Shown in pieces: positions 28,877-30,415 of a stretch of 64,000 nt of DNA. This stretch comes from an uncultured Thermococci archaeon (GTDB lineage Archaea > Methanobacteriota_B > Thermococci > Methanofastidiosales > B48-G16): NCBI GenBank assembly GCA_964595645.1, contig CAZQQT010000003.1, positions 72,177 through 136,176 on the forward strand, given 5' to 3'. How positions within the stretch are numbered: position 1 is the stretch's first letter; every line of letters begins with the position of its first letter. The notes beneath the pieces were generated by a model. It was not told the DNA's origin. It saw only the letters and a list, made by a program, of their open reading frames with translations, and ran no database searches. A program made the translations under genes and the position numbers.

Positions 28877-29728
28877 TTAAATAGCTTCTTTATTTAAGGG
28901 ATGACTCTTTTTGTATGTACTTTCTTTATACTTGTTTGTTACGTGAGTATACTGCTGTGTAGTAGAGAGGTCGCTATGTCCAAGGAGATCTTTGATGACA
29001 ACAATATCTGCATCATTTTGAAGTAGGTGAGTAGCAAAGGTGTGTCTCAGCGTATGGGGTGTGACGTCTTTCTCTATATTTGCCTTTTCAGCATATTTTT
29101 TTACGATACTTTGTACAGAACGCTGAGACATTCTTTCTCCATATTTATTTAGTATTAAGGCATTTTTTTCTTTTTTTCTTTCTTTTATGTATTTTTTCAC
29201 TAATTTTTTTGTGTTTTCATCCATAAATACAATTCTATCCTTTGATCCTTTCCCTAAATGTACAAAAACTTTTTCTTCTTCGATATCATTGACATTTAAC
29301 TTACATAACTCGGAGACACGCAGTCCAGTAGCGTATAGAAGCTGTATTATCACTTTATCTCTCAAATTATCGGCGGCATTTAATAAAGCCTTTATCTCGC
29401 TACGATTTAGGAATACAGGAAGAGTCTTAGAGACCCGTGGAAGATCGATATCTTCAGCGATTTTCATGTTTTTTGTCTTATAAAAACATTTGATAGCACT
29501 TAAATATCTGTATAAGGTCTTTAAAGATAAATTTTTTTCCTTTTGGAGCTTGAACATGTATTTTTTTATTTCTTTAGCCTTTATTTTTTCATAAGGCTTG
29601 CCAATGTCTTCAAAAAAGTTTTTCAACGTATTTTTGTAGTTCCTTATTGTGTTATCAGAGTATCCTTTCAAGCTCATCTCCATCTCAAAGTCTTCTATCG
29701 CTTTCATTCTTACACCTTCGTATAACAT
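28877..29728 (-). CDS. Tyrosine site-specific recombinase, Xer-like (archaeal XerA-type)
   Basis: 283 aa; catalytic region HTLRHTFATHLL...LLGHSDLSTTQQYTHV (R-H-R-Y signature); N-terminal SAM-like core-binding domain. The likely true start is Met8 (MKAIEDF, at 29707). Gene GC is about 33%, lower than the flanking genes. Confidence 0.8.
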   Translation of the reverse strand: MLYEGVRMKAIEDFEMEMSLKGYSDNTIRNYKNTLKNFFEDIGKPYEKIKAKEIKKYMFKLQKEKNLSLKTLYRYLSAIKCFYKTKNMKIAEDIDLPRVSKTLPVFLNRSEIKALLNAADNLRDKVIIQLLYATGLRVSELCKLNVNDIEEEKVFVHLGKGSKDRIVFMDENTKKLVKKYIKERKKEKNALILNKYGERMSQRSVQSIVKKYAEKANIEKDVTPHTLRHTFATHLLQNDADIVVIKDLLGHSDLSTTQQYTHVTNKYKESTYKKSHPLNKEAI

Positions 29729-29745
29729 ACATTATACGAAGTTAC
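29712..29745. other. lox-like recombination-site candidate: 13-bp inverted arms with an 8-bp asymmetric spacer
   Basis: Sequence ACACCTTCGTATA-ACATACAT-TATACGAAGTTAC. The perfect inverted core is CTTCGTATA/TATACGAAG. It overlaps the annotated start of the Xer gene and sits 5 bp upstream of the Met8 start. Confidence 0.55.
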
Positions 29746-29798
29746 TATTTAAAGGTTTCGGTCCAAATCAGCTCCATGTCGAAAATTGCATTTTTCAG

Positions 29799-29820
29799 TG
29801 AAATACCCCGGGGTATTTCA
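29799..29820. repeat. Perfect 22-bp palindrome TGAAATACCCCGGGGTATTTCA
   Basis: Exact inverted repeat (11+11, no spacer) located upstream of the Xer gene within the AT-rich intergenic region. Confidence 0.6.
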
Positions 29821-30211: not shown

Positions 30212-30415
30212 ATGGCGAGAAAGAAAAGTGAGATTGAGAAATTGAACATGACAATGGATCTCTCTACGCTTACTACCTACTTGGATGATCTCCAAAGGAG
30301 ATGGTCCTTCAGTACCATTCGTCAGGTGTCGATTCGTGAAGGACGAAGAAGAACTGTTGCAACAATTGATAAACTGTTTGAAGATCTTAGAGAAGAAATT
30401 AAGACTCTAAAGTGA
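30212..30415 (+). CDS. Small hypothetical protein (67 aa, predicted coiled-coil, basic)
   Basis: ORF with an ATG start immediately after the AT-rich region; no recognisable family. Confidence 0.3.
   Translation: MARKKSEIEKLNMTMDLSTLTTYLDDLQRRWSFSTIRQVSIREGRRRTVATIDKLFEDLREEIKTLK

Follow-up and report, generated by a model that had tools for sequence, protein, structure and literature searches.

The most conserved feature of archaeal dif sites, the recombination sites of XerA, is TAA-N(6-8)-TTA (PMC11840125). The dif of Pyrococcus abyssi reads ATTGGATATAA-TCGGCC-TTATATCTAAA and P. abyssi XerA recombines it without partners (PMC2958812). The dif of Thermococcus kodakarensis, confirmed by XerA ChIP-seq (chromatin immunoprecipitation followed by sequencing), reads TTTTGATATAA-TGTACC-TTATATGACAA (PMC11840125). 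A dif close to xerA was predicted in Sulfolobales (Cortez 2010), dif-like sequences lie upstream of the xerA operon in Haloferax volcanii and Halobacterium salinarum (PMC11840125), and an 'individual xerA/dif module' was described in a review (Castillo 2017). The Sulfolobales prediction was considered as a validated precedent but was not upheld, as the Sulfolobus solfataricus dif was later mapped by ChIP to the interval SSO1161/SSO1162, a long way from xer SSO0375. The present analysis concerns a 64,000-nucleotide stretch of DNA from an uncultured Thermococci archaeon (contig CAZQQT010000003.1, positions 72,177 to 136,176), referred to as the window. A model which had only the letters of the window (the sequence-only reading) had noticed a loxP-like 34-bp stretch at the start of a gene for an archaeal XerA-like tyrosine recombinase. 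It had likened this layout to the single-recombinase Xer/dif modules, a resemblance that was borne out, and had held that such modules were not described for archaeal XerA. Linked xerA and dif are already in the literature, as the Sulfolobales prediction, the haloarchaea and the 2017 review attest, and the window holds no new kind of system. What is unusual is how nearly the site matches loxP, in a site family that crosses domains, and the embedding of the site in the xerA core promoter. No paper noting either of these was found in the open-access literature.

The 28-bp core of this stretch is probably the natural core recombination site (dif) of the adjacent XerA. It is most likely this chromosome's dif and the xerA operator at once. 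The decisive evidence is conservation. The xerA loci were gathered independently of the site by exact-protein look-ups and by a scan of metagenome contigs with an XerA profile, with one exception (L015) taken from the site-pattern scan. Conservation at orthologous loci had been proposed as a check, and the site was present in all 18 loci with an XerA at least 48% identical to the window protein (range 48 to 76%). These 18 loci came from independent JGI, ENA and NCBI assemblies. The core ended 4 to 25 nt upstream of the xerA start, the exception being L185, in which the first in-frame ATG is inside the proximal arm. An alignment of the upstream regions of five lineages contained a sole contiguous invariant block, TCGTATAA-nnTAnn-TTATACGA. 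The arm cores TCGTATAA and TTATACGA were unchanged in 17 of the 18 loci and were replaced in L185 by the symmetric variant TCGCATAA/TTATGCGA. The flanks diverged while the 16 core bases were held, down to an XerA identity of about 50%. No site was found near xerA in loci with a more distant XerA (43% identity or less).

The changes that did occur in the arms were symmetric. Arm positions 1 to 8 were fixed apart from one symmetric T-to-C and A-to-G pair in L185 (GTTTCGCATAA-TGTATA-TTATGCGAAAT). Symmetric double changes were seen at positions 5, 9, and 10, and positions 9 and 10 switched symmetrically between subclades (CTTCG/CGAAG, TGTCG/CGACA, and CGTCG/CGACG). Dyad symmetry stopped at arm position 10 and was lost at position 11. 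Six spacers were found among the orthologs (TGTATG, CGTATA, GGTACA, TGTATA, TATACA, and TAAACA). Fixed arms, a varying spacer, and symmetric covariation are what a homodimer-type recombinase site predicts. The site would thus be read by identical subunits through two arms of about 10 to 11 bp around a 6-bp crossover region, placing it with the Xer/dif type and not with the 13-8-13 arrangement of lox.

The 34-bp sequence and its coordinates, 29712-29745, had been given exactly by the sequence-only reading, which divided it into 13-bp arms around an 8-bp spacer. The comparison gave 11-6-11 instead. The 13-bp arms were complementary at just 10 of 13 positions. The 8-bp spacer starts with A and ends with T, and these bases pair with each other, so that the perfect palindrome is one of 10 bp (CTTCGTATAA/TTATACGAAG) around the 6-bp spacer CATACA. 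Both bases were invariant and complementary in all orthologous loci. The arms of the 28-bp core were complementary at 10 of 11 positions. A search for copies of the 34-mer, which had also been suggested, returned this single plus-strand copy in the window with up to three mismatches allowed. There was no second TAA-N6-TTA site of such quality in the window, nor any further TAA-N6-TTA palindrome of 8/11 or better. A general repeat search at default-like settings missed the site, only 10 bp of which are perfect. The proposal of a tyrosine-recombinase target appears sound, with a dif-type geometry conserved in 18 of 18 loci. The coordinates of the site, the gene, and the promoter elements are collected in Table 1.

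Table 1. Features of the xerA locus, with coordinates in the window.
Feature	Coordinates	Strand	Description
loxP-like 34-bp stretch	29712..29745	.	ACACCTTCGTATA-ACATACAT-TATACGAAGTTAC; 30/34 loxP identity, inner 28 bp 26/28
28-bp dif-type core, 11-6-11	29715..29742	.	Plus strand CCTTCGTATAA-CATACA-TTATACGAAGT; gene orientation ACTTCGTATAA-TGTATG-TTATACGAAGG
Promoter-distal arm	29732..29742	-	ACTTCGTATAA (gene orientation); presumed to bind one XerA monomer
6-bp central (crossover) region	29726..29731	-	TGTATG (gene orientation); last three bases make the spurious upstream ATG of the 283-aa open reading frame
Promoter-proximal arm	29715..29725	-	TTATACGAAGG (gene orientation); outer end overlaps the Shine-Dalgarno-like GGTG
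TATA-box-like element	29746..29753	-	TTTAAATA; abuts the distal arm; putative promoter role, from the archaeal promoter consensus
BRE-like (B recognition element) motif	29754-29760	-	CGAAACC; precedes the TATA-like element
Shine-Dalgarno-like motif	29713..29716	-	GGTG; putative; 5-8 nt upstream of the Met8 ATG
xerA	28877..29707	-	Archaeal XerA-type tyrosine recombinase, 276 aa from Met8; NF040815, Pfam, PDB 4a8e; motifs LRVSEL, GKGSKDR, HTLRH, LGHS, YTH

The encoded protein was found to be an archaeal XerA and not Cre, as the sequence-only reading had it. It scored 289 bits against the NCBIfam XerA equivalog NF040815 (cutoff 220) and contained the Pfam domains Phage_integrase and SAM-like N. 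The best solved structure was P. abyssi XerA (PDB 4a8e, 5e-55). The top PDB matches were XerA, XerD, and IntI, and no Cre chain was among the 15 PDB matches listed at E<=1e-3. The catalytic R, K, H, R, H, and Y motifs were invariant in an alignment of eight sequences. The nearest named homologs were proteins of metagenome-assembled genomes (MAGs) labeled 'Thermococci archaeon', followed by those of Methanofastidiosa and Theionarchaea at about 50% identity. xerA was the sole tyrosine-recombinase open reading frame (ORF) in the window.

The longest ORF (28877-29728, minus strand, 283 aa) begins at an ATG at 29728-29726, inside the dif spacer. This bore out the reported overlap of the site with the annotated start and its position beside Met8, with 4 nt between the 34-mer and the downstream Met8 ATG and 7 nt between that ATG and the 28-bp core. 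Orthologs were 274-278 aa in length and had no ATG within their spacers. As the orthologs begin at the Met8 equivalent and the upstream ATG is not conserved, the true xerA start is Met8, as had been thought more plausible, with the ATG at 29707-29705 and a coding sequence of 28877-29707. The database entry P0001 was identical to the 283-aa form of XerA, and its gene model is likely mis-started by 7 codons.

The position of the site relative to the promoter was also conserved. An A/T-rich TATA-like element (TTTAAATA, TTTATAAATA, TATATAAATA, and others) lay against the distal arm in all of the loci except L010 (GACAGAGTTA), and a BRE-like (C)GAAA stood behind it in most of these 17. Most orthologous loci had GGTG or GGTGA in the interval separating site and ATG. 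The spacing from TATA to site was constant across loci while the distance from site to ATG varied. The center of an archaeal TATA box is usually near -26/-27. With this spacing the transcription start would be predicted near the junction of spacer and proximal arm, and the site would cover roughly -22 to +6. XerA bound to the promoter site would occlude RNA polymerase and repress xerA transcription. Autorepression through the promoter-embedded site is likely because the site sits between the BRE and TATA elements and the Shine-Dalgarno and ATG of xerA. The sequence-only reading had offered autoregulation as an alternative to a recombination site. Its regulatory part is likely right, given the position between TATA and start codon, but as an additional function and not as a replacement.

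Several further observations were made close to the site and at related loci. A perfect 11+11 palindrome, TGAAATACCCC/GGGGTATTTCA (equally 8-6-8 around CCCGGG), was present at 29799-29820 of the window, about 80 bp upstream of the dif-like site. In L178, L179, L183, and L015, a subclade with 55-58% XerA identity, a dif-like dyad CCAAATAA-CCCGTA-TTATTTGG was present about 70 bp upstream of the main site. Such an upstream palindrome or dyad could be an accessory or second binding site. The L185 site (L185:2964-2991, metagenome contig Ga0315295_10003407) reads GTTTCGCATAA-TGTATA-TTATGCGAAAT, and its arm core and spacer approach the bacterial dif (Escherichia coli GGTGCGCATAA-TGTATA-...). This variant bridges toward the bacterial XerC-side arm GCGCATAA. 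In Theionarchaea GCA_019008885.1 (L009:4865-4892) the sequence AAGTATTCCAA-GATACA-TTGGATTTCTT, a 9/11 palindrome with a 6-bp spacer, was found 31 nt past the xerA stop codon and may be a different xerA-linked site of that lineage. An RNA element at the site was considered and rejected, as Rfam gave no match there. The single sub-threshold match (Histone3) was within xerA.

The loxP site reads ATAACTTCGTATA GCATACAT TATACGAAGTTAT (PMC4132099). Against this sequence the match given by the sequence-only reading was confirmed, at 11/13, 7/8, and 12/13 positions, a total of 30/34. Over the inner 28 bp the identity to the loxP core was 26/28, with an identical crossover CATACA. The outer loxP-like bases on the distal side (ATAAC/GTAAC) were part of the TATA box and lay outside the symmetric site. 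Cre cleaves 6 bp apart inside the 8-bp loxP spacer. loxP can therefore be read as a 6-bp-spacer member of the same site family, ...ACTTCGTATAG-CATACA-TTATACGAAGT..., with one asymmetric base. That the TCGTATAA-N6-TTATACGA core adjoins Xer-like genes in several bacterial phyla and in other archaea, and a Cre homolog in Pantoea, suggests that loxP is of this family too. The likeness to loxP reflects a widespread Xer-type core and not contamination. loxP is not isolated, as a natural archaeal XerA-linked site differs from it at just 2 positions over the inner 28 bp.

The spread of the core was examined with a scan for TCGTATAANNNNNNTTATACGA over one genome per GTDB species, which gave at least 119 loci. 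Among the matches listed, 27 of 119 loci were archaeal and 26 of 119 lay no more than 500 bp from a tyrosine-recombinase ORF (25 if L091, a weak match at E=1e-4, is not counted). The recombinase gene started no more than 120 nt downstream of the site in all 12 loci with an examinable downstream ORF. Xer-like genes followed the core at a distance of 19-120 nt in L052, L080, Candidate Phyla Radiation (CPR) bacteria, and other bacteria. XerA equivalogs stood beside the site in Methanosarcinales (L080), in Methanoperedens (L052), and in L015, which is labeled Methanomicrobia at NCBI and whose XerA is 56% identical to that of the window. Xer-like proteins did so in CPR bacteria, L092 (Tissierellia), and L026 (Lachnospiraceae). 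Further tyrosine-recombinase ORFs close to the site came from Chloroflexota and Planctomycetota, the one in L059 (Planctomycetota) scoring far under every Xer cutoff. In L012 the site was inside a stop-to-stop ORF bearing a tyrosine-recombinase match, at the block end. A Pantoea locus (L011) encoded a full-length Cre homolog (PDB 1nzb, 1.5e-79) 139 bp from a TCGTATAA-N6-TTATACGA site.

In Pantoea L011:2942-2963 and L014:1145-1166 the site was 139-176 bp from a tyrosine-recombinase ORF. In Pantoea L090:190-211 the block contained no recombinase ORF, and the site was 190 nt from the block edge. The published pox site was rejected as an identity for the Pantoea sites, as pox resembles rox and not loxP. 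A site in a Candidatus Peregrinibacteria MAG (L055:3184-3217, JAYUSS010000149.1), ATAACTTCGTATA-ACATACAT-TATACGAAGTTAG, had 32/34 loxP identity. Its core ended 42 nt before the start of an XerC/D-like gene, the stop-to-stop ORF beginning 29 nt from the core. The L055 arms recurred with other spacers (AATGCA, TGCATT) in the Peribacteria loci L057, L077, L084, and L098. Perfect loxP arms with a different spacer, ATAACTTCGTATA-ATGTGTGT-TATACGAAGTTAT, were found in a 39.8-kb viral contig (L169:2095-2128, IMG/VR UViG_2579778564_000016) and presumably represent a lox variant native to a P1-like element.

A tentative reading of this distribution, which we regard as possible but doubtful, is that the TCGTATAA-N6-TTATACGA core marks an ancient cross-domain family of modules made of a recombinase gene plus its own site. 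It would comprise archaeal XerA, CPR and other bacterial Xer-like proteins, and Cre homologs, with Cre/loxP as a phage-borne offshoot. If this were true, the window XerA and its relatives may act on loxP-like sites without accessory factors. They could then cross-react with loxP, and Cre with the dif of the window, and a dif inside the xerA core promoter would tie the synthesis of XerA to site occupancy.

At the window locus, one XerA monomer would bind each arm of about 10-11 bp (TTCGTATAA / TTATACGAA). When homologous recombination produced a chromosome dimer, its two site copies would synapse in an XerA tetramer. Cutting where the 6-bp central region meets the arms, followed by strand exchange, would restore monomers. 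By analogy with P. abyssi XerA an FtsK-like partner would not be needed. We infer XerA binding, the cleavage positions, the dimer-resolution role, the transcription start site, and autorepression. With a partner-free XerA a second full chromosomal site would give deletions or inversions. By inference from this hazard, a full site embedded in the promoter is most simply dif itself.

A number of points weigh against the site being dif. The assignment for this organism rests on sequence comparison, and the single-copy status was established within the 64-kb window. No GC-skew or gene-orientation signature of a terminus was present at the site in the window, though skews in archaea often carry little information. 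In Methanofastidiosa and Theionarchaea, the closest outgroups, about 4 kb around xerA contained no site of this kind, and the adjacency of site and xerA is therefore clade-specific. Among archaea with experimental evidence, the two studied best have a dif far from xerA: in T. kodakarensis dif (TK0561/0562) is far from xerA (TK0777) (PMC11840125), and the ChIP-defined S. solfataricus dif (SSO1161/1162) is likewise far from xer SSO0375. Constant arms around a changing spacer would suit a pure operator as well.

That the palindrome is an operator only, bound by XerA or another dimeric regulator just to repress xerA while the real dif lies elsewhere, is the main rival. It would account for a site between TATA and ATG in all 18 loci (the TATA-like element being absent in L010), for a fixed TATA-to-site spacing beside a free site-to-ATG spacing, and for the experimentally studied archaea in which dif is not beside xerA. 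Conserved half-sites with a free spacer are typical of operators, and conservation alone cannot separate the two readings. However, the palindrome is no degenerate half-site. It is a full 11-6-11 site that bears the dif signature, and its spacer, TGTATG, is like that of dif (TGTATA in E. coli). The window contains no further TAA-N6-TTA palindrome of 8/11 or better, and a partner-independent XerA would recombine the site with any second dif. Some other archaea, such as L037, have the core motif as a strong intergenic palindrome with no recombinase gene nearby, and the motif is therefore not merely a xerA operator. Because the site is complete and dif-like, two full sites would be hazardous, and the motif is also found away from recombinase genes, the operator-only explanation is less likely than dif and was considered improbable.

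Far less probability was given to the remaining explanations. A chance AT-rich palindrome or a plain part of the promoter with no recombinase function would suit the base composition of the region (GC 0.25-0.34). In first-order Markov simulations 40% of 64-kb sequences were expected to contain at least one palindrome of 10/11 or better, while a perfect 10-6-10 palindrome was expected just 0.04 times per 64 kb. Such expectations are a weak argument for the site. It was the retention of the core bases while flanks diverged, the symmetric covariation, and the tyrosine-recombinase ORFs near listed matches of the scan that made chance highly improbable, and the conservation data effectively refute it. 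An attachment or resolution site of an integrated plasmid, virus, or Xer-exploiting integrative element with its own integrase was judged very unlikely, if less so than chance. The GC content of xerA, about 10 points under its neighbors in the window (0.32 against 0.43-0.45), speaks for it, as does the fact that Cre-like and plasmid resolvases typically adjoin their sites (L011; PMC5357621). Yet xerA was 4-11 GC points under its neighbors in every lineage examined (the window, L001, L002, L010, L015, and L175). An offset found at every orthologous locus belongs to the gene itself and does not speak for a recent transfer, and horizontal transfer as the cause of the low GC was rejected. The flanking housekeeping genes are syntenic in relatives, the protein scores as an XerA equivalog, no tRNA was found at the site, and the window contained no other integrase or second site copy. 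In viral contigs the motif seldom stood beside Xer-like genes (2/42, both weak). The integrated-element footprint suggested by the sequence-only reading was rejected on the retained synteny and the lack of a second copy, tRNA, or other integrase. Its other suggestion, an engineered loxP variant brought in by a vector or assembly artefact, has the 30/34 loxP identity in its favor and can point to a clear lox artefact candidate in a public genome. This candidate, in the 571-bp contig scaffold_235 of Marinifilum caeruleilacunae (L107:384-417 and 534-567), consists of two ATAACTTCGTATAATGTACATTATACGAAGTTAT copies 150 bp apart with perfect loxP arms and a palindromic spacer, and looks like a library-linker or vector artefact. 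The window site is no exact lox variant, its flanks are a native promoter and a native gene, and natural variants occupy the same position in independent metagenomes. An artefact was therefore rejected as next to impossible.

The gene order GatE-GatD-methyltransferase-GlyRS (glycyl-tRNA synthetase)-[intergenic]-xerA-P-type ATPase was the same in the window, L001 (JGI), and L002 (ENA), and the xerA locus is chromosomal and vertically inherited. A 67-aa ORF (30212-30415, plus strand) divergent from xerA was conserved in L002 (51% over 65 aa). Pfam gave no match to it, and it probably represents a genuine small gene.

The preferred assignment, a dif of the adjacent XerA, gives an uncultured euryarchaeal clade a dif that is well supported in silico (18 loci with symmetric covariation). 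The very tight xerA/dif module is a directly testable case of archaeal Xer autoregulation. It also bears on the origin of Cre/loxP and could yield loxP-compatible or loxP-orthogonal recombinases.

When the locus was compared to the known systems, the bacterial XerS/difSL and XerH/difH systems were found to be alike in having one recombinase gene directly beside its own dimer-resolution site in a modular arrangement. The window protein scored 115 bits against the XerS family NF003462, far below the cutoff of 267, and its match to XerH was distant (7.8e-16). difSL, a 31-bp site, depends on FtsK and has a central region of 11 bp, against 6 bp at the window site. With XerS/difSL only the gene-beside-site layout is held in common. 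Cre/loxP is alike in having a recombinase gene beside the site, with accessory-factor independence presumed. It differs in that the window protein is XerA and not of the Cre family, loxP positions 11-13 are outside the conserved dyad, the arms and spacer are not 13-8-13, and the context is chromosomal and not that of a phage or plasmid. The sequence identity to loxP is a resemblance only and does not establish membership of Cre/loxP. The experimentally studied archaeal XerA/dif systems (P. abyssi, T. kodakarensis, Thermoplasma acidophilum, and S. solfataricus) are alike in their single XerA-family recombinase, 28-bp 11-6-11 imperfect inverted repeat, and TAA-N6-TTA. The locus shares with archaeal Xer/dif the 11-6-11 geometry, TAA-N6-TTA, an XerA with an intact catalytic set, and conservation among relatives. 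In the comparison with known dif sites, which had also been proposed as a check, the window site was identical at 18/28 positions to T. kodakarensis dif, 18/28 to E. coli dif, and 14/28 to P. abyssi dif, and the inner TATAA/TTATA was the same as in P. abyssi. The outer arm is TTGG/TTTG-A in Thermococcales dif and TTCG in the window site. The dif of the studied archaea is far from xerA, whereas the window site is 7 nt from the start codon in the core promoter. The predicted archaeal xerA/dif modules are alike in having a dif-like site linked to and upstream of xerA. The window differs from them in its lineage, an uncultured clade related to Methanofastidiosa and Theionarchaea, in a much tighter coupling of TATA box, site, Shine-Dalgarno sequence, and ATG, and in the 18-locus conservation and covariation behind it.

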